Virus record (IMG/VR): IMGVR_UViG_2541047933_000011
DNA from: a virus
Taxonomy: Duplodnaviria > Heunggongvirae > Uroviricota > Caudoviricetes
DNA: 41,351 bases
Direction: 5' to 3' (one strand)
A program made the position numbers and the translations under genes. Numbering within the stretch: the stretch's first letter is position 1; each line of letters begins with the position of its first letter. Positions 3,369-20,219 of the stretch are shown piece after piece. Under the pieces are notes generated by a model. That model worked only from the letters and a program-made list of their open reading frames with translations, had not been told where the DNA came from and made no database searches.

Positions 3369-3395
3369 CCCGCAATATTTTGCGGGCTTTTTTTT
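3369..3395. terminator. stem-loop with flanking A/T runs at 3' end of tail spike gene (possible terminator)
   Basis: CCCGCAA-tatt-TTGCGGG hairpin followed by T9 on plus strand and preceded by A-run on minus strand. Confidence 0.35.
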
Positions 3396-6300
3396 AACGT
3401 TCTTCCAGAGACTGAACCCGCTCTTTTATCTTATCCATTTCTCTGCGCTGCCATGCTGCCTCGATATAGAATAAGAGATCAGGTCTGACCCCCCATCTAG
3501 ATCCTGCTGGCGTTATTTCAACGCGCTCAATGATGTCTTCTATTACCATCACTGGATTATCATCCTCATCAACAATGATGCTCCCGTCATTATCAGTCAG
3601 CGGCATTTCCCTTTGGCCAGTAATGACGTCATCATATACTGCGGGATAATCGTCATAGCAAAGAAAGGCATAGCGGCATGTTGTGCTTTCTTCTTCCATG
3701 AGTCCGTGAGAAATAAGAACATCACGAAGTTGCTGCGCGATTACACCATGATGTATCCTCGCCCCTTCTTCCCCCTTTATAGCGACAGCGTTCAGCCATT
3801 TATAAGCGATATACCTGACGTCACCCCAGGCATCCAGCAATGCTTCGTCAGGAGAGACCGGCTCTGTCTTTAATGTTCCGTCACTGGTAACCACAGGATT
3901 GGAGCCAAGATAAACTGTCGAGAACCTGTTTCCCGGACCACCAAGAGCATTTACATTATCAAGATAAGGTTTAACATCTCCGTTCTCAAAAAGATGTTCG
4001 AGTGCGTTATATACCGCGCGACGTGGAGTACTGCTTCCGGAACCATGCAACGTTATCATTGCACCATCTGCTGAAGACGTTGTTTCACCGCCGCTAACGA
4101 TTAATCTCTGAGCGGTAACATCATCAGACGGTACTTTCTTCGCAATAATGGCGTAATTACCCTCAAGTTTGACTTCCGCGCGAACTTGTCCTGATGTACC
4201 TGCATGGACAGTCAGTGACTGGACGGCAACATCATCTGTGAAATCAACGGGTACAGGAACCGTCCTCACGCCTGACGTCGACATAAAAGTAGGAAGCGTT
4301 CTGTTAGGAGTGGCTCCGTAGACAAAATCCCTTGAAACAAATTCTTCCTGTTTAATTTTCACCCTGAAACAATACAAATCAGCCGGGTGACCATCGTGAA
4401 CATAAGGATATTTTCTGTTGTTATCCCCTATGCTCCATGGGTTTAGAAAGTCTTCCCCACCGAAAATGTAGTACAGCCAGTTGTCTTTGATACAAACTGA
4501 ACCAACACCAACCGCAGAGTTAACTATTCCGCCCTGATAAATCTGATCAGTAACATTAACCCACTCTACATTATCCAGACTCCACTCATTGACGTTAACT
4601 CTGGTCATAAATGTTCTTGGATAATTTCCTGCATAACGGTTATCAGGCTCTCCTCCTTCCCACTCACCAAATGCGCGCTCACTGCCAAAAATAATCAGCT
4701 CATCGCCAACTTTGGCAAAAGGAAGGTTTGAGTGATGAACATTATTTGGGAAGCGAAGAGAATTCCATGATGTACCTAAATCAGAGCTTCTGTGCAATGA
4801 ACTACCGGGTTGAGTACTTAATGTCCCCCTGGTCGTCAGATACAGAATGCCATCATAATATTTTACACATGGCTCAGATGCATTCGCCTCATATTCTGCA
4901 GGTATGCGTCTGCGAACAAAGCTACCAGGAGAACCGAAAGCATCAGAGAAATAGAGTATCCCAAGCTCGCGTGGACCAATATCACCATTATGGTAGCCAA
5001 CAGCAAAACTGTTATCGCTAATCGTCGCAAAACTGTGAATCTCAGTAACAGGAGTGCTTCCGTCAACAAAAGAAGGAATAGTTCCAAGACTGGTTTTTCT
5101 CCATGGTGACGAGTGAAATGATGTACCAAAACTCCAGTATCTACCCTCGTTATTCTGATCCACATCCTGGGTATTTTGCGTCGTAACTGTAAAAGTATTT
5201 TTATCAATAACAGTAGTCACCGTCATATTCCCGGTAACACCTGTAACACCAGAGTTTGAGAAGTTGACAAAATCACCAGCAAATAATCCGTGATCAGTAA
5301 TGCGAATATAAGCGACTTGCTGATTTGCTGCTTTCGTTATACCACCATAAACGCGAAGGCTGCGACTCATTGGGCGATCCCACAACTCTGCAACCTGCAG
5401 TTTATTTCCGCTCACGGTCCGCGTCTCAATTACAGCAAAAAGGCGATTTCTGACAACCCCCATACTCATGCAGTGATAGTTAACTGTGGGATAGTTTTCA
5501 TGTAAATCTGTAAGCCATTCCGGCGTTGTCCAGGTCTTCCCGTCATCTCCTGAGCGAACCCATGCAACATGGAGGTTATTTACACCATGGCGGTCTCCAG
5601 CCATAAAAGGCGCATAGATGACATTGTCATATACAAACGTTTTATCCTGCGTCCAGGCGTTGTACCACGGTGTATCTGTAATTTTAAATAACTCTCCCTG
5701 GATAAAATCTTCAGAAGCATAAAAAAGAGGCTGGCCCGGTATTCTCTCAAATAAAAAACGAGCATTTTTAAATCGACTGACATCCGGAAGAGTTGATACT
5801 TTAAAAGTAAGCCCTAATCCGTCAATTTTATAACCTGGAGATGAGGCTTCAAGGCACGCGCTTATTGCAGTGGAATCGTCATTTATACCATCACCAACAG
5901 CTCCAAAATCTTTGGGGCTAATAGCATCACGCATTTTATCCTGGAACGTTCGGTACACAGCCCCAGAACCATACTGAATAAACCAACCAAAACCACCAAC
6001 AACCCCGGCGATTGCAGCATCGACATAATTACGCATTGAGCGATTATTTACAGCGTCCTGCTCAAATGATGGATCTGCAAGGTTAGAAATTTTGTTTTGC
6101 TTTGCATCGTAATATTTTGCAAGCAAAGATGGTTTCATCAATGCACGTCTGAACCACCCAAAACATTGCTGGATCAGCATCGTCAGGTAGTCAAAGGCAT
6201 CTTCATGCACTTCGGGGAAAAATTTTCCCTGATTGCGAAGGTCTGTCTCCTGCACCACATCAAGCACACGATCTATCGTAATTCGCCATCCAGCAGCAAG

Positions 6301-6513
6301 CGGCGACGGAAGAACAACAGAACCGCCACTATAAGTGCCCGCCCCAGTTACCGTATAACCGGTATCCAGTACTAGTTCTGTTACGTTACCGTTAAGGTCA
6401 GACACCTGAACAACCAGGTCGGATTTTTTGAAAATACGGAAGGTATACGGAAATGATGTCGTAACGCCGTTACCAGTGTATTCGTTGTGGTCAACTTCGG
6501 TTGAGACCGTCAT
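3394..6513 (-). CDS. tail spike: T7 gp17-like N-terminal adaptor, beta-helix/sialidase-like Asp-box region, C-terminal S74-type intramolecular chaperone domain
   Basis: 1039 aa; GGAG RBS; N-terminus YTGNGVTTSFPYTF; DFGAVGDGINDDSTAI pectate-lyase-like motif; Asp-boxes SGDDGKTW and SSDLGTSW; C-terminal GVIAQQL region. Confidence 0.8.
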   Translation of the reverse strand: MTVSTEVDHNEYTGNGVTTSFPYTFRIFKKSDLVVQVSDLNGNVTELVLDTGYTVTGAGTYSGGSVVLPSPLAAGWRITIDRVLDVVQETDLRNQGKFFPEVHEDAFDYLTMLIQQCFGWFRRALMKPSLLAKYYDAKQNKISNLADPSFEQDAVNNRSMRNYVDAAIAGVVGGFGWFIQYGSGAVYRTFQDKMRDAISPKDFGAVGDGINDDSTAISACLEASSPGYKIDGLGLTFKVSTLPDVSRFKNARFLFERIPGQPLFYASEDFIQGELFKITDTPWYNAWTQDKTFVYDNVIYAPFMAGDRHGVNNLHVAWVRSGDDGKTWTTPEWLTDLHENYPTVNYHCMSMGVVRNRLFAVIETRTVSGNKLQVAELWDRPMSRSLRVYGGITKAANQQVAYIRITDHGLFAGDFVNFSNSGVTGVTGNMTVTTVIDKNTFTVTTQNTQDVDQNNEGRYWSFGTSFHSSPWRKTSLGTIPSFVDGSTPVTEIHSFATISDNSFAVGYHNGDIGPRELGILYFSDAFGSPGSFVRRRIPAEYEANASEPCVKYYDGILYLTTRGTLSTQPGSSLHRSSDLGTSWNSLRFPNNVHHSNLPFAKVGDELIIFGSERAFGEWEGGEPDNRYAGNYPRTFMTRVNVNEWSLDNVEWVNVTDQIYQGGIVNSAVGVGSVCIKDNWLYYIFGGEDFLNPWSIGDNNRKYPYVHDGHPADLYCFRVKIKQEEFVSRDFVYGATPNRTLPTFMSTSGVRTVPVPVDFTDDVAVQSLTVHAGTSGQVRAEVKLEGNYAIIAKKVPSDDVTAQRLIVSGGETTSSADGAMITLHGSGSSTPRRAVYNALEHLFENGDVKPYLDNVNALGGPGNRFSTVYLGSNPVVTSDGTLKTEPVSPDEALLDAWGDVRYIAYKWLNAVAIKGEEGARIHHGVIAQQLRDVLISHGLMEEESTTCRYAFLCYDDYPAVYDDVITGQREMPLTDNDGSIIVDEDDNPVMVIEDIIERVEITPAGSRWGVRPDLLFYIEAAWQRREMDKIKERVQSLEER

Positions 6514-6689: not shown

Positions 6690-6708
6690 ATTGCATGGAG
6701 AAGATAAG

Positions 6709-6966
6709 ATGCAGCAGTATCACTATCCACTGGAAGACGGATTTACCGAAAGGATTCACACGCCGGGAGGCGTCAGATCACTGGTGGAGGGATCGCACTT
6801 GATGAAATTACTCCGGGATCTCGATAAGGATGGATTTAATGTCGATGGCCCACTTGCCGAACTGACTGCACTGATTAACTACGTCACCAGCTCACAGATG
6901 TCTATGCAGGATCTGCAAACACATCTCGACTATTGTGCCGAACAATTACGAAAACAAACCACATAA
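6709..6966 (+). CDS. small protein homologous to the C-terminal domain of the Bro-N antirepressor (candidate SOS-inducible antirepressor)
   Basis: 85 aa; GGAG RBS 8 nt before ATG; about 36 percent identity over about 72 aa to the C-terminus of the 8112..8804 product (hand alignment). Confidence 0.6.
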   Translation: MQQYHYPLEDGFTERIHTPGGVRSLVEGSHLMKLLRDLDKDGFNVDGPLAELTALINYVTSSQMSMQDLQTHLDYCAEQLRKQTT

Positions 6967-6971
6967 AGAAA

Positions 6972-6989
6972 AGGCCGCTCTAGCGGCCT
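6972..6989. terminator. bidirectional stem-loop between convergent genes
   Basis: AGGCCGC-tcta-GCGGCCT hairpin overlapping stop of 6988..7716. Confidence 0.45.
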
Positions 6990-7716
6990 ATCGTTTCGCT
7001 TTGTGCTCGTCCCAGCACGTTTTGCACCATGCCATTAAGCCGTCCGCATTTTGATTATTAGGGTAAAAGCTAGTTCGTTTTCTGCGGACATTACAAATTG
7101 GGCACCACTTCATATGGCGTGTATTCTTTGGGCCATCGAGACACCTTGCACACCACTTAGTCAATCCATCTGGATTTTTTGACGATTTCCTGAATTTTTC
7201 ATATGGAAGGTTTATTCTGCATCGCAAGCACTGCTTGCTACCACTTGAAACTCTGTTAGCTGATTCTTCTTTTGGCGGCGATACAGAAGGTATTCTTGCT
7301 GGCTCTGATACTGCCTGAGGTGCTTTTTTAGATGACTGAGACGATATGTCATCACCAGGGAATCTTCCATGATATGCCGGACGCGTTGACACTCCGGGTG
7401 GAAGCTCAGCTGTAAACGGCTTTGGCTGAATCAGTTGCCTCTCTTTTGCTAACTCCTGCTGTTTATAATATGTCTGGATTACCGCGCTATCATAAGCAGG
7501 AGGTACGGAAATATTAGGCGCATTATCTCCCGTTTTTTGAAACTGAGTGGAGGTGTGTTCTATCACCTGTGTACGATTAATCGTTATCTCCCCATCTTCA
7601 GTCTTTATCGTTTTGTTATGATTAACGACCGTACGATCAGAGATCTTAGTCTTGTTCTGGTTGATAACGTAAATAATCACCGCAACCACACCAACAACTA
7701 CCCAGAAAACTTCCAT
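6988..7716 (-). CDS. membrane-anchored protein with C-terminal tandem zinc-ribbon (four CxxC pairs)
   Basis: 242 aa; strong GAGGAAAGG RBS; N-terminal TM helix; C-terminus CLRC...WCARC...WCPIC...WCKTC. Confidence 0.6.
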   Translation of the reverse strand: MEVFWVVVGVVAVIIYVINQNKTKISDRTVVNHNKTIKTEDGEITINRTQVIEHTSTQFQKTGDNAPNISVPPAYDSAVIQTYYKQQELAKERQLIQPKPFTAELPPGVSTRPAYHGRFPGDDISSQSSKKAPQAVSEPARIPSVSPPKEESANRVSSGSKQCLRCRINLPYEKFRKSSKNPDGLTKWCARCLDGPKNTRHMKWCPICNVRRKRTSFYPNNQNADGLMAWCKTCWDEHKAKR

Positions 7717-7845: not shown

Positions 7846-8111
7846 TTTACATCGCACTCCTCTTGTGCCATAGTAATCGGGCACTGGCAAAATCCAGTGC
7901 CGGGATTGGTCTCCCGGATTACTACAGAGGCACATATGCCGCATAAGCGGTTTTTTTATGTGTAAAGCGCACCTATTCTATGGTGGGCTGTGTGGGGGCA
8001 CCGAAAGGTGCGCCGGGTTCCTTTGTAGCCGGTAAGACCAACTCTGCACAGTTCACCACCATCTGATTGGTCTCAGCGGTGGTGATTAACCTAACTACAA
8101 AGGTGATCGCC
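7846..8111 (+). other. long structured non-coding leader upstream of Bro-N gene (possible attenuator or small RNA)
   Basis: about 265 nt without a credible ORF; hairpins at 7872-7897 and 7996-8011 (GAAA loop); CCGC-ataa-GCGG plus T7 at 7938-7957. Confidence 0.3.
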
Positions 8112-8804
8112 ATGAATACCAAACCTTCCATCTTTTCCTTTGAGTCATCCTGCCAGATCCGTATGTTCATGATTGACGGAGAACCTTGGTTTGTCACCAA
8201 AGATGTGTGCAATGCTTTGAATATTGATGTTACACAAGCGAGAAAACTTGATAAAAAAGGCTGGAACAAAAAGGGGCTGTATTCAATACAGACCCCTGGT
8301 GGAATACAAGAACTATCCATCGTTTCAGAATCAGGTCTCTACATCCTTATTCTGCGTTGCAAAGAGGCAATGACTGAGGGAACGAGAGCATTCAGATTTC
8401 TTGAATGGGTTACAGGTGAGGTTCTTCCTCAGATCCGCCGCACCGGAAGTTACATTAAAAACTCGCTCCCGCAGGAAGAACGCATAAAGATGGTTGCCGA
8501 CCAGGTAGCCAACGCCACAGCATCAGCAGTGATGCAGGCAATGAAGATAGAGAACAAAACCTACAGTGCCCCACTGAAGCCCGGCTACCGCAGCCTGATT
8601 CATTCTCCGTCTGGTGTTCTCGGCCTGACGGAGAACTCATTGCTTATGAATCTGCTAAACCAGTTACAGGAAGACGGGCACGACGTATCGGGCGCGGCGG
8701 CGGAGCTGACCACCATGTTCTGCTACATCGTCGGTGTGAGCAAATGCCTGCGTGATATCCAGACCCACGCGGAGTACATCAACGACAAGGCAGGGTTCTT
8801 CTGA
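8112..8804 (+). CDS. Bro-N domain antirepressor-like protein
   Basis: ATG 8112 with AGGTGA RBS; N-terminal FMIDGEPWFVTKDVCNALNI Bro-N motif; C-terminal domain paralogous to 6709..6966. Confidence 0.75.
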   Translation: MNTKPSIFSFESSCQIRMFMIDGEPWFVTKDVCNALNIDVTQARKLDKKGWNKKGLYSIQTPGGIQELSIVSESGLYILILRCKEAMTEGTRAFRFLEWVTGEVLPQIRRTGSYIKNSLPQEERIKMVADQVANATASAVMQAMKIENKTYSAPLKPGYRSLIHSPSGVLGLTENSLLMNLLNQLQEDGHDVSGAAAELTTMFCYIVGVSKCLRDIQTHAEYINDKAGFF

Positions 8805-8917: not shown

Positions 8918-9106
8918 ATGGAAATCAACATCATTACATTGCTGAAGGCCATTATTGGCGGAGCGGGCTTAGGCTTTGCCCTACCAGGCGGATTATCTTT
9001 CCTGCTTCCTGCTTTTACTGTTACAGCTGGGATAGCCTATGCATTTGCTGTGGCTGGTGCTGTTGCACTCCCTGCTATCTATGCCGCAAAGAAGTTAGCC
9101 AACTAA
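8918..9106 (+). CDS. small hydrophobic Gly/Ala-zipper peptide (bacteriocin-like or membrane toxin-like)
   Basis: 62 aa; GAGGGGG RBS; N-terminal 15 aa ends in GG (MEINIITLLKAIIGG) followed by 47-aa hydrophobic glycine-rich segment. Confidence 0.5.
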   Translation: MEINIITLLKAIIGGAGLGFALPGGLSFLLPAFTVTAGIAYAFAVAGAVALPAIYAAKKLAN

Positions 9107-9107
9107 A

Positions 9108-9440
9108 ATGCCTGATTTATCTTGGCTTGCGCCCAGAGATGCACAGCAATTGACAAGGTTTTATTTCATACTGTGCATTGCTTATCTTGCTGTTCATCTG
9201 ATATGGGATGCCGTTTGCAAAGATACGCCTCCTTTTTCTTTGGATAAGTTGCAATACAAGATGAATGAGGTTTATTCATCATCTACTTTTGCAACCAGCG
9301 CATTCTTCATTGTTATTCTGTTCGATATGAAGAATCCACTGAGAACTTCAGATGCTTTCATATTCCCATTAATTATTGCTGCTCTAACTGGCTTTATGAT
9401 CTCATTATCAGCAATAGTGCCAAAGAAAGTAAATAACTGA
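9108..9440 (+). CDS. 3-TM membrane protein translationally coupled to the hydrophobic peptide (immunity or partner candidate)
   Basis: ATG 1 nt after upstream stop; three predicted TM helices; AT-rich. Confidence 0.5.
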   Translation: MPDLSWLAPRDAQQLTRFYFILCIAYLAVHLIWDAVCKDTPPFSLDKLQYKMNEVYSSSTFATSAFFIVILFDMKNPLRTSDAFIFPLIIAALTGFMISLSAIVPKKVNN

Positions 9441-9443
9441 ATA

Positions 9444-9466
9444 AGCCCGCGTTGCGGGCTTTTTTA
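9444..9466 (+). terminator. rho-independent terminator
   Basis: AGCCCGC-gttg-CGGGCT followed by TTTTT. Confidence 0.6.
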
Positions 9467-9537: not shown

Positions 9538-9699
9538 ATGAAAAAAGCATTTGCTGCACTGTTCGTTTTGTTGTCTCTGGTAGCTTCAACTCAGGCCTTT
9601 GCCGGTCGTTGTCAGCACGACAGCGATACTGCCGCTGACGGCTCCCGCTGCGGTGGGCGTTCTGCGGATTCCCGCCCGGGCGGCGGTGGCATTCGTTAA
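9538..9699 (+). CDS. small secreted Cys/Gly-containing peptide
   Basis: internal ATG gives signal peptide MKKAFAALFVLLSLVASTQAFA then about 31-aa mature peptide with 2 Cys; start and reality uncertain. Confidence 0.35.
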   Translation: MKKAFAALFVLLSLVASTQAFAGRCQHDSDTAADGSRCGGRSADSRPGGGGIR

Positions 9700-9704
9700 A
9701 AACA

Positions 9705-9727
9705 AGGCCGCGAAAGCGGCCTGTTTG
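9705..9727. terminator. stem-loop between convergent genes
   Basis: AGGCCGC-gaaa-GCGGCCT hairpin. Confidence 0.45.
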
Positions 9728-9728
9728 A

Positions 9729-10580
9729 TCACTGTGCAGTTTTCGCTGATCGATTTTCAGCTCTAAATTCAAGAACCGTTTCAATATTTCTTTCCTTCAG
9801 CATATCAATAACATTTTTATTCATTTGACTATCACTGGTTAATAACTGGTAAACGTTGCTTCTCTCTTTATCAGAATTTTCTTTAACAGCTGCTTTGCAT
9901 GCCAAATGCTTATTGAAATTTTCTACATCGCTAGTACAGGAATTTACGGCTGCTGATGAAATATCAGACGCTGAAGAAACACCATCATCCAAACGTTTTA
10001 TAGCATTTTCTATACATGAGTTAAGGGAATAAACGACAACTGAGCGATACCCTTCAGACGCACACCATTCTAAATTTCTTGAAGGATCGAGTGGTTTTAC
10101 TTCGCTGGATTGAATTAACTTGTCAAAAACTGACTTATATTCAATCTGTTTTTTATCTATAGCCCATACTTCAGTAGCTGATTTATAATTCCCCGTATGC
10201 CTATTAACATCAAATCCATGTTTTATAAGCAAATCTGCCCATGAAAGATTTATTGATTCATTGTTATGAGGCCATTTTCCTGTCAGAACCGCCCCCATAG
10301 ACCCCATATATCCGCCATATGATGGTATAGCACCATGGCTCAGTAACTTCTCAGCAACCACAGGGCAATTAATTACATAAGAGGCGTAAAGCCCATTCCA
10401 TAAAGCCCCTCTATAGTAATCGCCACGATTAGGTTCTTTTAAGTCGATAGCCTTTGATAATTGTTCACACGTTTTGCATGCATCAAAGTTATCCTTATTG
10501 CATTGCAATGAACTGGCGGCTGTAGGATTTACAGAGACTATTGAAAGCACTATGCCAAAAAACAAATTTATTTTTTTCAT
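9729..10580 (-). CDS. secreted protein with ankyrin-like repeats
   Basis: 283 aa; signal peptide MKKINLFFGIVLSIVSVNPTAASS; ankyrin-like segments (AEKLLSHGA; ADLLIKHGFDVNRHTG); AT-rich; starts 1 nt after stop of upstream virion gene. Confidence 0.55.
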   Translation of the reverse strand: MKKINLFFGIVLSIVSVNPTAASSLQCNKDNFDACKTCEQLSKAIDLKEPNRGDYYRGALWNGLYASYVINCPVVAEKLLSHGAIPSYGGYMGSMGAVLTGKWPHNNESINLSWADLLIKHGFDVNRHTGNYKSATEVWAIDKKQIEYKSVFDKLIQSSEVKPLDPSRNLEWCASEGYRSVVVYSLNSCIENAIKRLDDGVSSASDISSAAVNSCTSDVENFNKHLACKAAVKENSDKERSNVYQLLTSDSQMNKNVIDMLKERNIETVLEFRAENRSAKTAQ

Positions 10581-10581
10581 C

Positions 10582-13500
10582 CTATTTCATCTGCTCTTCA
10601 ACTTTATTTAGTAATGGTGATATCGCCCACAGATTCTGAAAAGGTAGCATTTTACGGACAGCGTGGGTTTGCTGGCTGTCAAATTCTCCGTTAAGTACAC
10701 CATTTGCAACCGTCGCGGCATCACCGCCAAGATCAAAGGTAGGACCAAGTAAAGCACCAATAGCATTACGACTCTGAAACCTTGATACCGGAGGCGCACC
10801 AAACATCGCGCCAAGACCAAACCTACCGCCGCTTATGTTCTCAACGGTATTCAGCGGCTCAGAGAGCCAGCCAAGCATTCCGCCCCGGTCGATCCCCTCT
10901 TTCACAAGGTTATTCCAGCTGTAGTCGATATCGCGACCGCTTAACTTCTGTTTCATCATATAGACCATTGAGCCAAGCGCAATCGTGCCAAGCGCACCAA
11001 GATAGAATGAAGCATCGCCCTGCTGGATACCAGATACCAACACCCTGTTATGCTGTGCGAAGATAAACGTTTTGAACTGCGTGATCATCTTCCAGCCTTC
11101 TTTACTAAAAAACAGCGGTGTATCACCTACGCCAGGCGTTACAATCACTGAGTCTACATCTTTCAGCACTGCAGACTGGAAAATCTCTCTAGCGAAACGG
11201 TCATCCCACAGATGACTATGCCCGGTTAACAGCCCGTCCATATCCTCTCCGTGCTTCCCGAATTGCTCCCCGATTCGGCGCAGAACATCTTCATTGATGC
11301 CGACCTGTGCCATCTTCCGCATTTCACTTTTGGCGAGCGTGCCACCAGCAGAAACCTGGCGAGCCGCGTCAAGTATCCTCGACTGCACTATCATCCCGGA
11401 CCATGATTTAAGTGCGCTGTTCCACTGATTCATCAGCGTCCAGTTACCGAATTTCTGCGTCATCCAGTTCAGGCCTCGCTCAGCGGCGCTTCTCCGGCTA
11501 TAGGGGTCAGTAAGATCCGCTATAGCCTTTGTACGCGTAGACAGGACATAATCAAGCCCAACGGCCATTTCTCGCAAATCCCTGGTTGCAATTTTCACTG
11601 AGTCCATATTTTTAAGCATGCTTACCATTGGTCCGAGAGATTTTCTCAGGCCATGCTGCATCATCGGTCGCATCAGATCAGTTGCAGCGGAGACGGTCAT
11701 TCCACCAAGCAAACGGAGGAAGTTAATATTCCTAGCAACTCGCCCGGCACGAACAAAGAAACTGCGTGGATCTTGAGGTGCGCCGTAAGTACCAAGCAGT
11801 CGGTCACGCATAGCCGTAATATCCCTAATATCAGCCTCCCGTTGCTTCTCAAGAGCTGCACGTCGTTTAGGTGTTTTAGCCTCTTTTATTAGCCGGGTAT
11901 ATTCCTCACTAACCTGACGGATTTGCTCCCCCATATCTTTACGGCCAAACTGCGCAGTCAGCTCAATTTCTGGTGCCACCTGCCGGAGATAACTTTCCAT
12001 GATGTAGTTAACATCTGATTCAAGAAAATCTTCTATACGCTCATCAGGAATAAGCAGCGTTCGGCTTTTAGTGAAACCAGCCCGACCAACGAGTCTCTCT
12101 GGGATAATATCGGCTGGTACAAGCCCGGAAGGTGCGCCTATTATTTTATTCACGATCTCGTCAGCAGCGTCCTCTGCTTCCTCTCGGGATAGAGGCTCCA
12201 TCTGCTTCAGTGCTCGCTCGCGGCTTGCATTCAGCCTTGTGGTTGAATTTGCCCGTTTTTGCAGTCGGCGAAGCTCAGAACGATATTTCCGTGGATTATC
12301 CAGCAACTCCATATGGCGCTGATAGACAGGAAGCTCACTCTTTGCCTGCGCTATATCATCAAGGCGTGTTTTAAGGTCAGAGCTTTCTTTCATCATTCTT
12401 GCCTGAAGTTTTTCTGATGAAGTCTCGGCCAACTCTTTTTCTATTCTTGTAAGACGCGCCTGTGTGTCAGTCTCCTGAGATATAAGCTTATTTCGTTTAT
12501 CCAGTTCTTCCATGAGTAGAATTTTTTTACCAGACCATTTCTCCGCTTCAGCGATTTCACTAGCGAGAGCATCAGCGCGCGGTGCCGATTCCTCTGCAGT
12601 TTTTAGCAATGAATTTATCCTTTCAATTCGCTGACCTGCTTTGTCAGCACCTTTGGCACTAATCCCTTGTATCCAGTTGGCAATTCGCCCTCTGAATTCA
12701 GTGCGGTCGGAAAGTATCTTATCGAACTTATAAATGCGGGGAAGATAACTTTTCGCCGTCACGACATCGATATCCTCAGGAAGGATCCCCAGTTCCTGCA
12801 TACGGGCTTTTGTGGTCTCGAAAATGGGGCGGATTCTGGCGGCTGCTTGTGAAACCTCAGGAATATCACTCTGATCACCACGGCGCATAGCCATGCCAAC
12901 AGCTTCATTGAAATCAATAAAGCTCATCCTCTTCACGCCGCGGGCGCTGACAGATTTGCTGTACTGCTGGTAAGCATCACGAGTGGCTTCCATCTGCTTA
13001 TAAAGCATGGCGTCGTATTGCTTAATCTTAGTCTCGACTGCCGTAAACGTAGCCAACCCCTCATCATTTTTGGCGAAGAAATAGTTATTTTCGGCAAGCT
13101 GCTGGTTAATCTGACGGGAGACAAGAGATGGTGATTGCGCCAAGCGGCCAGCAGGAGTGACACTCAACGTTTTGTTAGCAAGTCCAAGTCCAGCGAGCTG
13201 TTCCTGATCGAGTGTGGTATTGAAAACCTGAGCTGCACCAATGCTTTGAGGAGAATCCATACCTCGCAAATGATTACCTACTGAGTTAACCACTGCCTCG
13301 CGCGCGCTAGGTCCAGCAAGTAGCTGTGCACCAGCACCAAGGATCCCACCAACGAGAGCATCAACAACAACGTTCGATACGCTCTCCATCGGTGAGCGAG
13401 CTTCCTGAGTGGCCTGCAATGCGGCCTCTGAAGCAACACTGCCAGCAGCATTGGCTAAAGCAAAACGTCCGGCTGTTTCTGCAATACGACCGCCACGAAC

Positions 13501-13971
13501 GACAGCGCCGAACGGAATAAACATAGAAATCGCATTGAATGGATCTGCTAATCTCATTGCTACAGAAGAGACTGTACCAGCAAATCCCAAGCCTGAATTG
13601 TATTCCATGTCAGCTCTCTGCTGATCGATTCGATGTTTAATTGCCATTGTTTCTTCAGGCGAACCGGAGTTGATAAACGAATCTGCAAAATCTTCATAGC
13701 CTTTAATATCTGCTGCATCGTTATCAAATGGGTTATATCCTTCAATCCTGTCAAACTGACTGAAAGGAGCACTGGCAATAAAGCTACCCAGCGTGTTATC
13801 TATACGAAATGCTGCTTGTCTAGACCTTTGAACGCGTTGATCACTGGTAAATGGGTTCACAGCAGAAAGCAAAGAAGGTGTTTCCATATAGAAATTACTG
13901 TCATCAGGTGCTGCTATTTGCTGAATATCCTCGCCAAGCAACTCTTTAGGATCCTGTTCATATATCGGCAT
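10582..13971 (-). CDS. large virion/internal (ejection-type) protein
   Basis: 1129 aa; start overlaps upstream stop (TAATG); position in structural operon. Confidence 0.7.
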   Translation of the reverse strand: MPIYEQDPKELLGEDIQQIAAPDDSNFYMETPSLLSAVNPFTSDQRVQRSRQAAFRIDNTLGSFIASAPFSQFDRIEGYNPFDNDAADIKGYEDFADSFINSGSPEETMAIKHRIDQQRADMEYNSGLGFAGTVSSVAMRLADPFNAISMFIPFGAVVRGGRIAETAGRFALANAAGSVASEAALQATQEARSPMESVSNVVVDALVGGILGAGAQLLAGPSAREAVVNSVGNHLRGMDSPQSIGAAQVFNTTLDQEQLAGLGLANKTLSVTPAGRLAQSPSLVSRQINQQLAENNYFFAKNDEGLATFTAVETKIKQYDAMLYKQMEATRDAYQQYSKSVSARGVKRMSFIDFNEAVGMAMRRGDQSDIPEVSQAAARIRPIFETTKARMQELGILPEDIDVVTAKSYLPRIYKFDKILSDRTEFRGRIANWIQGISAKGADKAGQRIERINSLLKTAEESAPRADALASEIAEAEKWSGKKILLMEELDKRNKLISQETDTQARLTRIEKELAETSSEKLQARMMKESSDLKTRLDDIAQAKSELPVYQRHMELLDNPRKYRSELRRLQKRANSTTRLNASRERALKQMEPLSREEAEDAADEIVNKIIGAPSGLVPADIIPERLVGRAGFTKSRTLLIPDERIEDFLESDVNYIMESYLRQVAPEIELTAQFGRKDMGEQIRQVSEEYTRLIKEAKTPKRRAALEKQREADIRDITAMRDRLLGTYGAPQDPRSFFVRAGRVARNINFLRLLGGMTVSAATDLMRPMMQHGLRKSLGPMVSMLKNMDSVKIATRDLREMAVGLDYVLSTRTKAIADLTDPYSRRSAAERGLNWMTQKFGNWTLMNQWNSALKSWSGMIVQSRILDAARQVSAGGTLAKSEMRKMAQVGINEDVLRRIGEQFGKHGEDMDGLLTGHSHLWDDRFAREIFQSAVLKDVDSVIVTPGVGDTPLFFSKEGWKMITQFKTFIFAQHNRVLVSGIQQGDASFYLGALGTIALGSMVYMMKQKLSGRDIDYSWNNLVKEGIDRGGMLGWLSEPLNTVENISGGRFGLGAMFGAPPVSRFQSRNAIGALLGPTFDLGGDAATVANGVLNGEFDSQQTHAVRKMLPFQNLWAISPLLNKVEEQMK

Positions 13972-16718
13972 TATTTGCCCCCTGCGTATATATTGCTCGG
14001 AAGGTAATTGGCTGAACCATAACCGAATGGTTTGGTCAGATCTGGAGGAGTATATCCATCTTTATTGCTGAACTGCGGCAGCGGATTGCCTTCTCTCCGC
14101 ACTCTAGCCTCATCAACACGCTGTTGCTGGAACTGAATGGTTTGCCTGTACATTGGAGATGTCAGCTGATCCGGCTTGAAACGAACAGGGAGACCATTTT
14201 CTCCAATATAATTTCTCGGTTCTATCGCTCCGTTTGCGTCAGGCTGTAAAACCATAACAGCATAACTCCTATCCCTTGCCGTAAGGCCATCAGAAACAAG
14301 TATTAAGTCCGTATCACTGCGAGGACCGCCAAAGGATTTTGATTTAAGCTCGCGTTTTTCCTGCTCCCACTGCCCCTGTATCCAGTTACCAGCACCATTA
14401 TTTACTCCGTACAATGCCTCAGGTGCATACTTCATAACCTCTGCTTTGCCATTAACCGTAGAAACTCCCCAGGTGGTTCTGATCATGGCATTGGTCATTT
14501 TCTCAGCCTGTTCTGCATCGCCACCTGTCTGTACAAAGTTAGCATCGTAAATTGTCTGGTAATCTCGCTGATAGGCCGCATTTGATTTTCCTGGATCGGT
14601 AATATCCGGAGACCACGAACCAAAGGAAGTCAGACTGCTGGCGTTATTTTGTGCAGCAGTTACCCTCGCCGCGACATATTTTTTGTCTCGCATGGCAGTG
14701 GAAAGCATCTGTTTCATTCGGTCATCCTGTTGGAACACCTGACTGTAAGCCATATCAACAGCCTTATCCTCCGGCACGCCAGCGCGGGAATAATCGTAAA
14801 CCTTGCCATAAAATGCCATCGTACTTTTATCAAGTGTTGCCGCTGCCGCCGGATTATTATCGAATAACTGACCGTAGAATTTTGCCATCGGGACAACCAG
14901 CGCAGGATCTCTTGATGTTGCTCCACTGTTAAGCATTGTTTTAACCTGAGTTGGTATCATGCCGCTTTTAGTTGTGACGGTGACCAGTGTATTGATGCTC
15001 TGCGGATCAGATATGGAAAACGAAGGCGCGATATCCTGCGCGAAATAACGGTCTACCGCTGCCTGATTGTTTTTGTCGTTCGGGTCCAGCGGGAAGTTAT
15101 TTTGCATTGAAGACACGAACCTGTTTCTTCCCTGCTGAATCTCCCACTCCCTATCCATCTCTTTAAATTTGGCCTGCATTTTCTCCCAGCGTTGCTGGTT
15201 AGCAGCAAATCCAGGAGCATTTGGATCCTGTGGACGTAAACGTTCAAGAATGTCTTGTCGTCCTTCTGGAGTGAGGTCTTTAGCGGCACCAATGACACCT
15301 CCATATTGTATCTGCGCCTGCATATCCTTCCACTTCATAGCGCCAATGCGCGGACCATTGGCCCGGATAAAATCGTCCTCAGAAGGTAACTTCTCAGGTT
15401 TCAATCCTTCATCAAGGGCTGAATATGCATCTTTAACTACGGTGCTAAGCTGGTCCGCATACTGCTGGCGGTACTGATTTCTCAGCTCATTAGCCTGCCT
15501 CAATGCCTGTATTTGCATTTGAGGGCTCATAGCATCAAATGCCGCATTGCCCGTATAACGCTTAGGTGAATCAAGGTTAGTTAGACCAAGGGCTGCCGAG
15601 ATACCAGTTTCAAGCTGTTCGGTGCTATAAGGCATACTGCCATTTTCGTGTTTAATAATCCCAGCACATAAAGCAGCTAGTGTCTTTGGGTTAGAGATAT
15701 CAAGCTGATCATTCTCCCCAACACCAAGCTCACCACACAATGCCCTAATATAAGCATCAGTATTATTACCATCACTAGCCGGAGCATAGCGATTAACAAT
15801 CTCGCTAACGGTGTCATAGCCTTGACGCTGGTAAGACAACATATTTTTACCCAACGCGCGGATTCCATGCTCAGGGGTAGCAAACGTTGCAAAACGTCCA
15901 TCGCTACCGATCTGACCTTCCCACGGGTTAGATTTGCTCGCTTCAATATTACCAGGGTTATTATTACGTAAACCACGAGCATCCAATGAATTACCATGTG
16001 ATATTGCACGACTCACACCATCAAGATCCCCTGGCTCTCCATTAACCTGAAGAAACTCGTTGTATTTTTGAGCGATATTTCCTATCCATGCTTGCTGCCC
16101 CATTTGTTCCTTGAGCTGAGTTTTCTGCTGAACACGCCACTCATCAGGAAGCCCATGCGCATCAGCGTATTGATCAATAGATTCAAATCGCTGCTTGGCT
16201 AAATCGACAAATGCTTGGTTATCGCTATATAGCCCCGCAGACTGAGTGACAGCCAATGCATTTCCTGACAAATACGTTTGATCTTGGAATTGCTGAAACT
16301 GCCCAACTTCATATCGACGTGCCTGATTGTAATAAGACTGCATAGACTGCTGGAGTTGAAAGGATAATTTATTCCTTTCCTCACTTTCAGGGATTGAGCC
16401 TAATAATGCCTGAGCCCTTTCCTGCATATTTTTCATAACAGCGTCACTCTGACCAAGAGCGTTTTTACCCTGTTTAGAAATCAGCCCATTTTCAGGGTTG
16501 TTAATCTGGTCATCTGCAAATTGGTTAAATTGCAGTAACGCCTCCTGGGCCATAGCAACATTCGCTTTCTGCCTGGCTTCACCATATGCCACCGCATACT
16601 GATCTGCGACATTCGCCAGCACCTGACCTGCTTGAGGAACATCGAAGGTCTGAAAACCACCGGTTTGCACACCACGACTTTGCACCTGGCGTCCGGATGT
16701 AGTAGGAACAACAGGCAT
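13971..16718 (-). CDS. large virion protein
   Basis: 915 aa; AGGAGG RBS; contains RNNNPGNIE...W.G motif of uncertain assignment. Confidence 0.7.
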   Translation of the reverse strand: MPVVPTTSGRQVQSRGVQTGGFQTFDVPQAGQVLANVADQYAVAYGEARQKANVAMAQEALLQFNQFADDQINNPENGLISKQGKNALGQSDAVMKNMQERAQALLGSIPESEERNKLSFQLQQSMQSYYNQARRYEVGQFQQFQDQTYLSGNALAVTQSAGLYSDNQAFVDLAKQRFESIDQYADAHGLPDEWRVQQKTQLKEQMGQQAWIGNIAQKYNEFLQVNGEPGDLDGVSRAISHGNSLDARGLRNNNPGNIEASKSNPWEGQIGSDGRFATFATPEHGIRALGKNMLSYQRQGYDTVSEIVNRYAPASDGNNTDAYIRALCGELGVGENDQLDISNPKTLAALCAGIIKHENGSMPYSTEQLETGISAALGLTNLDSPKRYTGNAAFDAMSPQMQIQALRQANELRNQYRQQYADQLSTVVKDAYSALDEGLKPEKLPSEDDFIRANGPRIGAMKWKDMQAQIQYGGVIGAAKDLTPEGRQDILERLRPQDPNAPGFAANQQRWEKMQAKFKEMDREWEIQQGRNRFVSSMQNNFPLDPNDKNNQAAVDRYFAQDIAPSFSISDPQSINTLVTVTTKSGMIPTQVKTMLNSGATSRDPALVVPMAKFYGQLFDNNPAAAATLDKSTMAFYGKVYDYSRAGVPEDKAVDMAYSQVFQQDDRMKQMLSTAMRDKKYVAARVTAAQNNASSLTSFGSWSPDITDPGKSNAAYQRDYQTIYDANFVQTGGDAEQAEKMTNAMIRTTWGVSTVNGKAEVMKYAPEALYGVNNGAGNWIQGQWEQEKRELKSKSFGGPRSDTDLILVSDGLTARDRSYAVMVLQPDANGAIEPRNYIGENGLPVRFKPDQLTSPMYRQTIQFQQQRVDEARVRREGNPLPQFSNKDGYTPPDLTKPFGYGSANYLPSNIYAGGK

Positions 16719-17284: not shown

Positions 17285-17748
17285 TATTTTCTCTCCATGT
17301 GAAATCTGTGGAAATTAAGACCAAGAGCACCATAAGGCGCGGCTTCTTCAAGCCTGAATCCAAGCCAGTGCAGCCATGCTTTGGCAACATGGTTTCGCTC
17401 GTCGACGTAGTTTTCCAGGCGCGGATAAACTGCCAGCATCTGCTGCAATACAGGGCGGCAGTGGCGAAGAAATGTCTTCTGATATTTTTCGATACGGCTG
17501 GTTCCGACCAGCCAGGGCGTACCATTGCCACCGATCATTGACGCCGGAGATACGCCAAATATGGTTACCAGTTCTCCGTTCGCAAATCCTGACCAGGCCA
17601 TAGTCGCAGTACGCAGACCAACACGCAGCGCATCTTCGGTAGTCATCAGTGATACCGCATACAGTTCGTCAATATCAGCCTGACGAACATCCGGCAAAAT
17701 CATCTGAAGATGCTCTTCGGTTGCGGGAATAATTTGAACATCTATCAT
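17284..17748 (-). CDS. virion-associated protein, unknown function
   Basis: 154 aa; translationally coupled. Confidence 0.6.
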   Translation of the reverse strand: MIDVQIIPATEEHLQMILPDVRQADIDELYAVSLMTTEDALRVGLRTATMAWSGFANGELVTIFGVSPASMIGGNGTPWLVGTSRIEKYQKTFLRHCRPVLQQMLAVYPRLENYVDERNHVAKAWLHWLGFRLEEAAPYGALGLNFHRFHMERK

Positions 17749-20219
17749 CAGAATCCCCCAACAGTAAGGCGAGGAATAACGGCAAGAACAGACAGCGGCA
17801 ACGGGTCAAGCTGACGGATTTTTACACGTCCGTTTTTGCCCCAGTTACTGTCCAGTTTCACTTCTACTTTTCCGGTAGCATCATCAACAGGATCATCGTA
17901 GAACTCGAATTCACGCTGTGGATATTCGTACCATTTACCGCCGGGCGTAGTCGCCCAGATGCCGCGACTGGCATTCACAACCAGAGTAACGGAGGGGATC
18001 ACCTGTTTTTTGTCCAGCAGCGTTTCCTGTCCGTTAATGTTGATATCCAGTGTTTCGAATTCAGCAGTTATTGGCAGGCCGATGTGCACTACAGCCCCCG
18101 GAGATTCCAGCGTGACGGCACCTCCGGAAACCACTTTCTGTGGTTCCACGTTCGCATCAGAGAGAATGTTTACGGTCTGGCCTTCAAGATGAGACAGGCC
18201 TCCAAATGTCCGGCGCGCCATCTGCCAGTTCGTGGTAGCCACATTCCTGAGGGATGGCGGGACGTTCCTGTTAGCACGAACCACTACAGCGGTATTGCTG
18301 GTTACAGAAATGATGTCGCAACGTAATTCTTTTGACACTTCATCGCCAGTATCAGGATCAGTTCCGGTATAAGGGAACTGTAGTTGAGCACCGATATCAC
18401 TACTGGTGAAGTACGCACCACCAGAAACACTGATTGTATATTCCGCGCGGTAATCCCATTCGCCAGAACCACCAGTGATGGTCATCGTTCTGTCAGACGT
18501 ATTTCTTCCATCATAGCTAAGGCCAGAATCAACAAAGAAAGCATCTTCATCGCTGGTAAATAAACGGCTGGACAGCCGCTCGATGTATCTCACTGTTTGC
18601 CCGTTAACGGTTCGGTTAACGACGAAATACACCGCATCTTCATTGCCTTCGCTGATACTGCATGTGCTTTCATATTTTCCGGTACTGGATTGTGGTGCCC
18701 ATGCAAAAACCTGCTGATCACGCAAATAGGTCATCACCAGTAATTTACCGTCATCACGAATGCAGAAGGCACTGGAGTAAGGGACAATCGAGAAGCACCA
18801 GTCAACAATGCTGTGCTTCTGAAAAAGATGATTGGCAAGGATGGTCAGGTCGTTCCCCTGATAGCCGTCAACATCGAATGAGTAGGCCAGATCACGGACA
18901 ACGCTGCCTTTCTCCTGGACGAACAGAGCAATATTCGCCACGGCAATTGGCGGGACGTTGCTTGAGCCATTTGATCCCTGAGAGCTGAATGCAAATGATG
19001 ATGGGGTTAACACTTTGTTCTGGTCGCCGGTGATGACGTACTCACCTCCGGAAGTCAGCGCCACCAGCGAACCGACATCAATCAGGTGGCGGATCTCATT
19101 AACCTGACGCCCGGCATAGGTGTAGATAATTCTGTCGTCATCCTGCGTAGGATTGCTTTTGCCAAAATCCTTATAATCCCCGGTACGGCTGGCCCAGATA
19201 GTCTGAGGGAACGCAGTCGATGCGGCGAAGTAAAGACGTTGTTGATAATAAACAACAGTGCCAGGATAACCATTAACACTGTTCCAGGCATATTTAGCCC
19301 ATTTATAGCTGGCATTATCCTCGCCAACGACCTGCGAAGGGATATAGGAAATCACCTCAGCAGTTGCAGTAGTGCCATTTGCAGCAGTGATACGGGCAAT
19401 GCCAAAACCACTGTGCAGATACTCCCACTCAATGCCAGTATCATCATCACCGGATCCGCCCCAGCCATCCCATGATGTGCCTTCTGTATGCGAAGGGCGC
19501 AAAGTACCTGTTTTGCCTGCTGTAACGGCGCGATAGTAGTTACTGTCTGCACGGCGAATATCGCCAATCGACGTACTCTTACTGGTTTCCCATACCGGCA
19601 CAGAATCCACTGCAGGCTGTTCCAGATAGAACAATTTGCCTACCTGCTCCGCGCCAAAAATAGAGGCGCTTGCCGTTAACGTAATTGTCCCGGTGCTGGC
19701 GCTGGCATAAACCGTCACTGACTCGTCAATATTGATATCTTCAAATGGCCCGTTCTTCGTTACCACATCAACCAGTTGCCAGTTGTCATGCGCATAGCGG
19801 CGCAACTCTTTCGGCGGGTATGCCGGATGAACCAGCGTAAGCACGTCTGCGCTTTGCGTGAATTTAATTCGGAACAGATCGGCTTCAGTATATGGCGTGG
19901 AAATTTCATAAATAACATTGCTGCTGTTCAGCACCAACGCACCATCTTTGATAACGCGCATGTACTGGTGTCCGAACTCCAGAGCATAAGTCTGAACCGT
20001 CGAGAACTGGAACGGGATCAGGCGGCATTTCCGATTTGGGTATTTGGCGGCACCGACAAAACGCGTACCAGGTCGATTCTCAACTCCGCCATACTGCCGC
20101 ACGATAAAGTTATCGCACTTGCGCAATGCCACCTGGTACTTCGCCATGTCAATACGACCGTACAACGACGGTCCAATCTCACCACCGGCAAAGCTGGGCT
20201 GGATCCAACTGATAGCCAT
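17748..20219 (-). CDS. tail hub / tail tubular protein B-like
   Basis: 823 aa; N-terminus MAISWIQPSFAGGEIGPSLYGR resembles T7 gp12 N-terminus (recalled). Confidence 0.65.
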   Translation of the reverse strand: MAISWIQPSFAGGEIGPSLYGRIDMAKYQVALRKCDNFIVRQYGGVENRPGTRFVGAAKYPNRKCRLIPFQFSTVQTYALEFGHQYMRVIKDGALVLNSSNVIYEISTPYTEADLFRIKFTQSADVLTLVHPAYPPKELRRYAHDNWQLVDVVTKNGPFEDINIDESVTVYASASTGTITLTASASIFGAEQVGKLFYLEQPAVDSVPVWETSKSTSIGDIRRADSNYYRAVTAGKTGTLRPSHTEGTSWDGWGGSGDDDTGIEWEYLHSGFGIARITAANGTTATAEVISYIPSQVVGEDNASYKWAKYAWNSVNGYPGTVVYYQQRLYFAASTAFPQTIWASRTGDYKDFGKSNPTQDDDRIIYTYAGRQVNEIRHLIDVGSLVALTSGGEYVITGDQNKVLTPSSFAFSSQGSNGSSNVPPIAVANIALFVQEKGSVVRDLAYSFDVDGYQGNDLTILANHLFQKHSIVDWCFSIVPYSSAFCIRDDGKLLVMTYLRDQQVFAWAPQSSTGKYESTCSISEGNEDAVYFVVNRTVNGQTVRYIERLSSRLFTSDEDAFFVDSGLSYDGRNTSDRTMTITGGSGEWDYRAEYTISVSGGAYFTSSDIGAQLQFPYTGTDPDTGDEVSKELRCDIISVTSNTAVVVRANRNVPPSLRNVATTNWQMARRTFGGLSHLEGQTVNILSDANVEPQKVVSGGAVTLESPGAVVHIGLPITAEFETLDININGQETLLDKKQVIPSVTLVVNASRGIWATTPGGKWYEYPQREFEFYDDPVDDATGKVEVKLDSNWGKNGRVKIRQLDPLPLSVLAVIPRLTVGGF

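Follow-up and report, generated by a model that had tools for sequence, protein, structure and literature searches.

A two-domain ankyrin-type protein with a predicted export signal in the late operon of an epsilon15-like prophage: a candidate periplasmic inhibitor of PHA02564 muralytic enzymes

Known periplasmic inhibitors and exclusion genes

Two described periplasmic proteins that block muralytic enzymes are among the closest comparisons for the gene analysed here. Bd3460 of Bdellovibrio bacteriovorus is a periplasmic ankyrin protein of self-protection, which blocks peptidoglycan hydrolases (DD-endopeptidases) (PMC4686830). Its gene adjoins that of a peptidoglycan-degrading enzyme, with which it is co-transcribed. 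The second protein is Spackle (gp61.3) of phage T4, a periplasmic phage protein which inhibits the gp5 tail lysozyme (PMC7677548). In the literature searched, Spackle is the only periplasmic inhibitor of a phage injection lysozyme that was found, and none was found for podoviruses of the T7/epsilon15 architecture. Spackle is small and all-helical, and it is the product of an early gene of T4.

Superinfection-exclusion genes of temperate phages are another group for comparison. The rexAB genes of lambda and the ltp gene of TP-J34 lie next to the repressor gene, and the gene site after CI is the usual home of prophage genes that are expressed in the lysogen, typically for exclusion or defence.

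The DNA analysed here (41,351 nucleotides; hereafter the window) is a temperate podovirus prophage of the epsilon15/phiV10 type, whose late operon ends in a gene for a 283-aa protein. This protein resembles Bd3460 in having a predicted signal peptide and ankyrin repeats, and a steric blocking in the periplasm is proposed for it too; specific similarity to Bd3460 was not detected. It has no relationship in sequence or fold to Spackle and is not a member of that family. What the two proteins would share is the proposed function, that of a phage periplasmic inhibitor directed against the muralytic domain with which a superinfecting phage injects its DNA. Spackle is an early product and acts on a T4-type lysozyme, whereas the 283-aa gene belongs to the late operon of a temperate podovirus and its proposed target is a domain of the PHA02564 family. 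The role proposed below would therefore join Spackle-type exclusion with ankyrin immunity of the Bd3460 type, in a pairing of fold and target and in a setting that are new.

The late-operon gene and its predicted export

Among isolated phages, the closest relative of the prophage is Escherichia phage EC.W1-9, with which it shares 99% identity in this region; E. coli IHE3034 carries the same prophage, adjoining yfgI. The late genes of the minus strand follow one another without gaps. They encode, in order, a tail protein (17748-20219), a protein of 154 aa, a gp14-like internal virion protein, a 915-aa gp15-like ejection protein (13971..16718; phrog_1044/873/7182, with an RNNNPGNI motif) and a 1129-aa internal virion or ejection protein in the position of T7 gp16 (10582..13971; phrog_342/16310, with synteny to Morganella and Serratia prophages). 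The 283-aa gene, taken from the ORF list and assigned to phrog_6118, is the last of this operon (9729..10580, stop codon included). As the initial annotation had stated, it starts 1 nt after the stop codon of the 1129-aa gene (ATG at 10580, stop codon at 10582-10584). A promoter scan gave no sigma-70-like site between or just upstream of the last two late genes. Directly after the 283-aa gene, between the two convergent stop codons, lies a G+C-rich hairpin (9705..9722) with a 7 bp stem, a T-run and a terminator score on the minus strand, which is taken as the late-operon terminator and probably acts in both directions; the homologous site of phiV10 carries a terminator annotation. Given the lack of a promoter-like site and the terminator that follows at once, transcription with the late operon is the simplest reading, and the coupling to the late structural genes that had been proposed is confirmed to this extent. 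The gene is also AT-rich, as had been judged by eye: its GC is 0.367 (GC3 0.28), compared with 0.483 in both the 1129-aa gene and the whole window.

The 283-aa protein begins with MKK-INLFFGIVLSIVSV-NPTAAS. In the n/h/c-region analysis, codons 1-24 (10509..10580, minus strand) encode a predicted Sec/SPase I signal peptide, MKKINLFFGIVLSIVSVNPTAASS, with a positively charged n-region containing two lysines, a hydrophobic core of 14 residues (mean KD 2.9 over 10 residues) and AXA-type cleavage sites, predicted at residues 22-24. These calls are rule-based and were made on 14 family members and 11 stand-alone relatives, the lipobox being defined as [LVI][ASTVI][GAS]C. In the 283-aa protein there is no lipobox in the first 40 residues and no further TM or hydrophobic segment. 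Lipoprotein status was rejected for this reason, and the protein does not belong with the exclusion proteins of lipoprotein type (Llp, Cor, Ltp). By the same rules, an SPase I-type signal peptide without lipobox places it among the predicted Sec-exported periplasmic proteins. All 13 homologues compared have this signal-peptide architecture in common, and its sequence varies among them. The classical signal peptide of the initial annotation is thus upheld, and its cleavage is predicted. Eight Cys residues are invariant in the homologues (C27, C35, C38, C72, C173, C189, C215 and C228), as is a CKTC (CxxC) motif. The eight residues fit oxidative folding in the periplasm, where they are predicted to form disulfides; we infer from these features a Sec-exported, periplasmic and disulfide-stabilised protein.

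The position of the gene, at the end of a block of internal-virion-protein genes, would suit a structural or ejection protein of the virion like its upstream neighbours. Virions, however, assemble in the cytoplasm, whereas the predicted cleavage of the signal peptide and the eight conserved Cys agree with folding in the periplasm. Related phages, moreover, lack the gene. The signal peptide by itself makes a stoichiometric virion role unlikely, and the virion reading as a whole is assigned a very low probability.

Convergent with the 283-aa gene, on the plus strand, lies a 53-aa ORF (9538..9699) which had been described as encoding a signal peptide but regarded as less certain. The first point is supported, as a predicted signal peptide ends at AFA|G and is followed by a mature peptide of 30 residues, rich in Gly/Ser/Asp and containing two Cys. 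The reservation no longer applies. Because the whole length of the ORF matches phrog_14503/3117 and comparison with its Klebsiella-phage homologue shows strong purifying selection (pN 0.10, pS 0.73), it is a real gene, surer than first thought. Eight E. coli phage records contain it in identical form, seven of them without the 283-aa gene, and the copies in Klebsiella phages share 82-86% identity with it; the relatives that carry it without the 283-aa gene include TL-2011b, phiv142-3, HEMP4 and the Klebsiella phages. Terminator-like hairpins stand on both sides of it, and the upstream one (9443..9461, plus strand; terminator scan) closes the preceding plus-strand genes. A weak promoter-like site, TTGACG-16-TATAGA, can be seen by eye upstream of the ORF but failed the rule of the scanner. 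The ORF is not linked to the 283-aa gene as had been supposed; it is an independent, separately mobile moron cassette which shares only the terminator with it.

Other small genes of this part of the window deserve a brief description. The terminator at 9443-9461 closes two adjacent low-GC ORFs on the plus strand, which encode a Gly/Ala-rich hydrophobic peptide of 62 aa (8918-9106; phrog_13406) and a 110-aa protein with several hydrophobic segments (9108-9440; phrog_36716) and resemble a small membrane-peptide/partner pair. A 242-aa protein (6988-7716, minus strand; phrog_6762) has an N-terminal TM helix and a C-terminal series CLRC...WCARC...WCPIC...WCKTC, whose Cys motifs match endonuclease VII/HNH/Lar-like zinc-ribbon families weakly; since IHE3034 has a YafO-type toxin gene there, this is another variable cargo site. 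A 91-aa ORF (6691-6966, plus strand) repeats the C-terminal ~85 residues of a Bro-N/Ant-like protein of 245 aa (8067-8804, plus strand), and both products match phrog_450/15539, which amounts to a partial duplication of the anti-repressor C-domain.

The homologues of the 283-aa protein fall into 22 clusters, all of 270-283 aa, with identities of 84-89% in Klebsiella, 55-61% in Serratia and others and 39-42% in Morganella and Providencia. Wherever the context is visible, the gene follows immediately upon that for the ~1130-aa ejection protein in related prophages, and the gap to the upstream gene is 1 nt, 11 nt and 31 nt in three genera. With Morganella, the identity is 41% for this gene and 55% and 44% for its two upstream neighbours, and for Serratia the values are 61% as against 79% and 57%; by this comparison, the gene co-diverges with the ejection-protein genes upstream of it. 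It is AT-rich in all three hosts (GC 0.35-0.40), and a dN/dS of about 0.16 indicates purifying selection. Among 5426 complete E. coli genomes, 120 have the 1129-aa allele and 106 of these also the 283-aa gene (~2% of all). In 50,697 phage records, tblastn found the protein in EC.W1-9 only. The corresponding slot is occupied in phiV10 by a gene for a 46-aa membrane protein and in Klebsiella phage ST512-KPC3phi13.3 by one for an unrelated 204-aa cytoplasmic protein (phrog_3383; L108:4686-5300, minus strand), for which PADLOC gave no match. Such unrelated genes mark the slot as a cargo hot-spot, and the 283-aa gene, though conserved, is accessory and belongs to one phage lineage.

The strict late-operon coupling in three genera, the retention of the gene in most E. 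coli genomes with this 1129-aa allele and the invariant CKTC motif would also agree with a helper in the phage's own cycle, that is, a late periplasmic factor which tunes the phage's own wall-degrading activities, in lysis timing or in protection from premature damage, or a protein with a CxxC redox role. However, close relatives lack the gene and have other cargo in the slot, and the endolysin type varies among the prophages that carry it (GH19, PHA02564, GH24). The fold described below, which is that of ankyrin and not of thioredoxin, also counts against this reading. A helper of this kind is considered improbable.

The gene is present in ExPEC/APEC strains, including IHE3034, APEC O18 and ST95. 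Ankyrin proteins of pathogens are often effectors, and morons are typically AT-rich, as this gene is, features which would be in keeping with a factor of lysogenic conversion or virulence that remodels the envelope or, once released at lysis, acts on the eukaryotic host. Yet the Sec signal alone leads only to the periplasm, free-living bacteria of the environment, and prophages of such bacteria, also have relatives of the protein, and the gene neighbourhoods described in the next section point to muralytic enzymes and CI operons. The link with K1 ExPEC/APEC (IHE3034, APEC O18) is itself explained by the carrier, whose endosialidase tailspike is K1-specific. Little likelihood is left to a virulence function. 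The tailspike (1039-aa; 3394-6513, minus strand) is of the K1 polysialic-acid depolymerase type; its N-terminus is the conserved adaptor of the epsilon15-like phage group, and its C-terminus reads by eye as an intramolecular-chaperone-like region.

Two domains and the neighbours of their stand-alone relatives

The initial annotation had described a repeat protein and noted no second domain, but two domains are present. The first (N-domain; residues ~25-162; 10095..10508, minus strand) consists of a Cys-rich N-cap (C27, C35-x2-C38, C72) followed by three ankyrin-type repeats of ~33 residues each, which form the stacked helix-turn-helix and beta-hairpin units of the ankyrin fold and have ALWNGLY in place of the TPLH consensus. 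The second (C-domain; residues ~168-283; 9732..10079, minus strand) is a helical bundle, with pLDDT above 90 in the full-length model, and contains C173, C189, C215 and C228 and the motif C-x8-LDDGVSxASDI-x8-C; the signature that is invariant in the family is C-x8-(L/I)DD-x-x-S-x-ASD-x8-C. The idea that the C-domain might be a lysozyme inhibitor of the LprI/DUF1311 type was dropped, as neither Pfam nor profiles supported it.

Pfam Ank models gave no match at E<=1, either to the 283-aa protein or to its stand-alone relatives. The family profiles, on the other hand, match true ANK proteins at E 1e-9 to 1e-11 and Ankyrin-1 in the PDB at E 6.5e-5. The ankyrin-like repeats reported earlier are thus substantiated by fold and profile matches, with the single sequence falling below the Pfam Ank models. 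The protein joins the ankyrin superfamily as a new and divergent member, to which none of the libraries searched assigns a function. It matches phrog_6118, labelled as of unknown function, over its full length (1-283 of 283, E 1.1e-200). Scans of the protein against Pfam, NCBIfam and PADLOC gave no match, and PADLOC-DB returned 0 families for it, the 53-aa peptide, the neighbouring small ORFs and one C-domain relative. A PDB sequence search with the full-family profile yielded chance coiled-coil matches only, and Foldseek against BFVD no significant match.

A profile search of 1.84 billion representatives retrieved 68 relatives, which separate into two sets. One set comprises secreted proteins of ~160-170 aa that match residues ~1-155 only, the other secreted proteins of ~110-160 aa that match residues ~160-272 only. 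The 283-aa protein is hence a fusion of two uncharacterised secreted families. No Pfam domain is found in either stand-alone set, and the sole PHROG match of both is 6118, the fusion itself. A scan of genome contigs with a narrower alignment yielded two loci only.

The genes of the C-domain set recur at one site. In all three prophage loci with visible context, which belong to unrelated prophages (L074:1614-2843, L110:4325-5345 and L113:9204-10483), the stand-alone C-domain gene lies directly downstream of a CI-type repressor gene (HTH_3/Peptidase_S24), with a Cro-like gene divergent from the repressor gene. In L113 the C-domain gene overlaps the repressor gene by 4 nt. The small secreted products share the motif LDDG(V/I)SPASDIA. 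They resemble the rexAB and ltp systems in their position directly after CI, and differ from them in lacking homology and in not being lipoproteins; in the window, the C-domain is instead fused to an ankyrin domain and encoded in the late operon. These small proteins are candidates for a new exclusion module expressed in the lysogen. In a BPP-1-like phage (L111), the C-domain gene has a giant virion-protein gene on one side and the Mtd tail-fibre genes on the other, a position comparable to that of the 283-aa gene.

The genes of the N-domain set have a different recurrent neighbour, a domain with the signature RNNNPGNI...G-DG-FA-F...(W/Y)AP...ENG, which is the catalytic domain of PHA02564/Enc34-type endolysins. 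The muralytic activity of the Enc34 endolysin has been shown experimentally, and its catalytic Glu lies in the ENG motif (PMC8943055). The family has no Pfam model, and PHROG labels it 'endolysin' or 'tail injection transglycosylase'. In the window, motif and HMM evidence place a PHA02564/Enc34-type domain, the proposed target, at residues ~243-395 of the 915-aa protein (15534..15992, minus strand), with the RNNNPGNI, (W/Y)AP and ENG elements and the position of the catalytic Glu all present; muralytic activity of this domain is predicted. The 915-aa and 283-aa genes belong to one operon, and the 915-aa gene lies upstream with just the 1129-aa gene in between. The domain is present in the gp15-like ejection protein of every fusion-gene prophage (the window, Morganella, Serratia, L039-41 and L104). 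The endolysin of the Morganella prophage (L004:12247-12723) is a paralogous PHA02564 copy and matches the Enc34 endolysin structure (PDB 7Q47) at E 1e-22.

A small PHA02564 gene lacking a signal peptide adjoins a secreted N-domain gene in 4 of ~13 loci with usable flanks, all four being environmental. In a Bacteriovoracia MAG (L011:5267-6402), a PHA02564+DUF3892 gene overlaps the N-domain gene by 4 nt; in L071:336-1353 the overlap is 8 nt; in L073:7932-8961 the genes are 7 nt apart and lie 1.3 kb from a T6SS tssH gene (TIGR03345, 1274 bits). The three pairs are co-oriented, the arrangement expected of an enzyme and its immunity protein, whereas in L106:457-2175 the genes are convergent and ~0.5 kb apart, with a toxin-antitoxin pair between them. 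In a prophage (L010), the N-domain gene is the last of the tail module and the tape-measure protein ends in a PHA02564 domain. The association is partial, since ~8 of 13 N-domain-only loci have no PHA02564 gene nearby (L057, L061, L063, L064/68, L067, L070 and L107). By a rough estimate, four adjacencies still far exceed the number expected, the domain being rare outside phages.

An enzyme without signal peptide next to a tightly coupled gene with one is the classic layout of periplasm-acting effectors and their immunity proteins, as known for T6SS peptidoglycan effectors, and the overlap in the Bacteriovoracia locus also recalls the neighbourhood of Bd3460. The PHA02564/N-domain pairs look, from their layout, like an undescribed antibacterial effector/immunity pair; neither an N-domain immunity family nor a PHA02564 effector class was found described in the literature searched. 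Some of the small PHA02564 proteins of these pairs have DUF3892 or His-rich tails, and they occur in non-phage contexts. In two marine contigs (L064:276-1652 and L068:3548-4987), the N-domain lies inside a secreted protein of ~460-480 aa, with N-terminal MORN-like repeats by eye, next to integrase genes.

These loci raise the question of whether the prophage gene is itself an orphan immunity gene, whose inhibition of PHA02564 enzymes would protect the lysogen from effectors delivered by T6SS or predators and not from phages. The tightest pairs are indeed non-phage, by tssH in L073 and in Bacteriovoracia-like contigs in L011 and L106, and in L067 the N-domain gene is clustered with genes for small secreted proteins and for a 217-aa protein, lysozyme-like by eye, which has no NCBIfam match. 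In the Enterobacterales, however, the gene is confined to this prophage lineage, always behind the ejection-protein genes with which it co-diverges; the window has no T6SS context, and no enterobacterial PHA02564 T6SS effector was found documented in the literature searched. An orphan immunity role is accordingly judged unlikely.

Proposed inhibition and its significance

The preferred reading is that the 283-aa protein is a periplasmic inhibitor of PHA02564 enzymes, either of the ejectosome or of foreign origin. Binding and inhibition are proposed, and we regard this reading as evenly poised between right and wrong; a specific role in superinfection exclusion is somewhat less probable than that. 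After export and cleavage of the signal peptide, a mature protein of ~259 aa would reside in the periplasm. The PHA02564 domain of the 915-aa ejection protein would have to act in this compartment during DNA injection. The ankyrin domain may bind the PHA02564 domain of ejection proteins as they cross the periplasm of the attacked cell, and the binding would sterically block local digestion of the wall, so that DNA entry of related phages would be stopped. A producing cell, in the late phase of infection or, provided that lysogens express the gene, in the lysogenic state as well, would thereby exclude related superinfecting phages. The protein could also neutralise PHA02564 effectors of competitors or predators, in the manner of Bd3460, and the C-domain would probably add a second exclusion function or one of anchoring or tethering.

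Several lines of evidence support the inhibitor reading: the export signature, with a signal peptide in all homologues and eight invariant Cys; the stand-alone N-domain genes beside PHA02564 genes; the constancy of PHA02564 in the ejection protein of the carriers while their endolysin types differ; and the experimentally proven muralytic nature of the family (PDB 7Q47). Further support comes from the stand-alone C-domain genes directly after CI, from the accessory cargo slot seen in phiV10 and ST512-KPC3phi13.3 and from the precedents Bd3460 and Spackle. In light of this, the earlier suggestion that the protein could act on the envelope or on host factors lacks precision and probably names the wrong target, as the neighbourhoods of both domains lead to muralytic enzymes and prophage exclusion. 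The PHA02564 link is guilt by association, and the domain is common in phages anyway. That the gene is wired into the late operon and no separate promoter was detected for it counts against exclusion, which would matter most in lysogens. Moreover, as the endolysin of the Morganella prophage is a PHA02564 protein, the inhibitor might antagonise it unless it is specific for the ejection copy.

In its widest form, the proposal would make the 283-aa protein the first phage ankyrin-type periplasmic inhibitor of an ejectosome muralytic domain and the phage representative of a wider, as yet undescribed PHA02564-cognate immunity family, with stand-alone PHA02564 proteins as new periplasm-targeting antibacterial effectors delivered by T6SS or predators, and with the C-domain as a second exclusion module that normally belongs to CI operons. 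This combined claim is put forward tentatively, as one more likely to be wrong in some part than right throughout. If the inhibitor reading is true, an ankyrin protein unrelated to Spackle would be a second solution to the same problem, and blocking the breach of the wall would be a recurrent strategy of exclusion. A function would be given to two uncharacterised secreted families that have no Pfam match and are represented in PHROG by 6118, and PHA02564 proteins would become candidate interbacterial effectors with a cognate immunity family. The 283-aa gene could then also be an obstacle to therapeutic phages, or to enzybiotics of the Enc34 type, that depend on PHA02564 domains.
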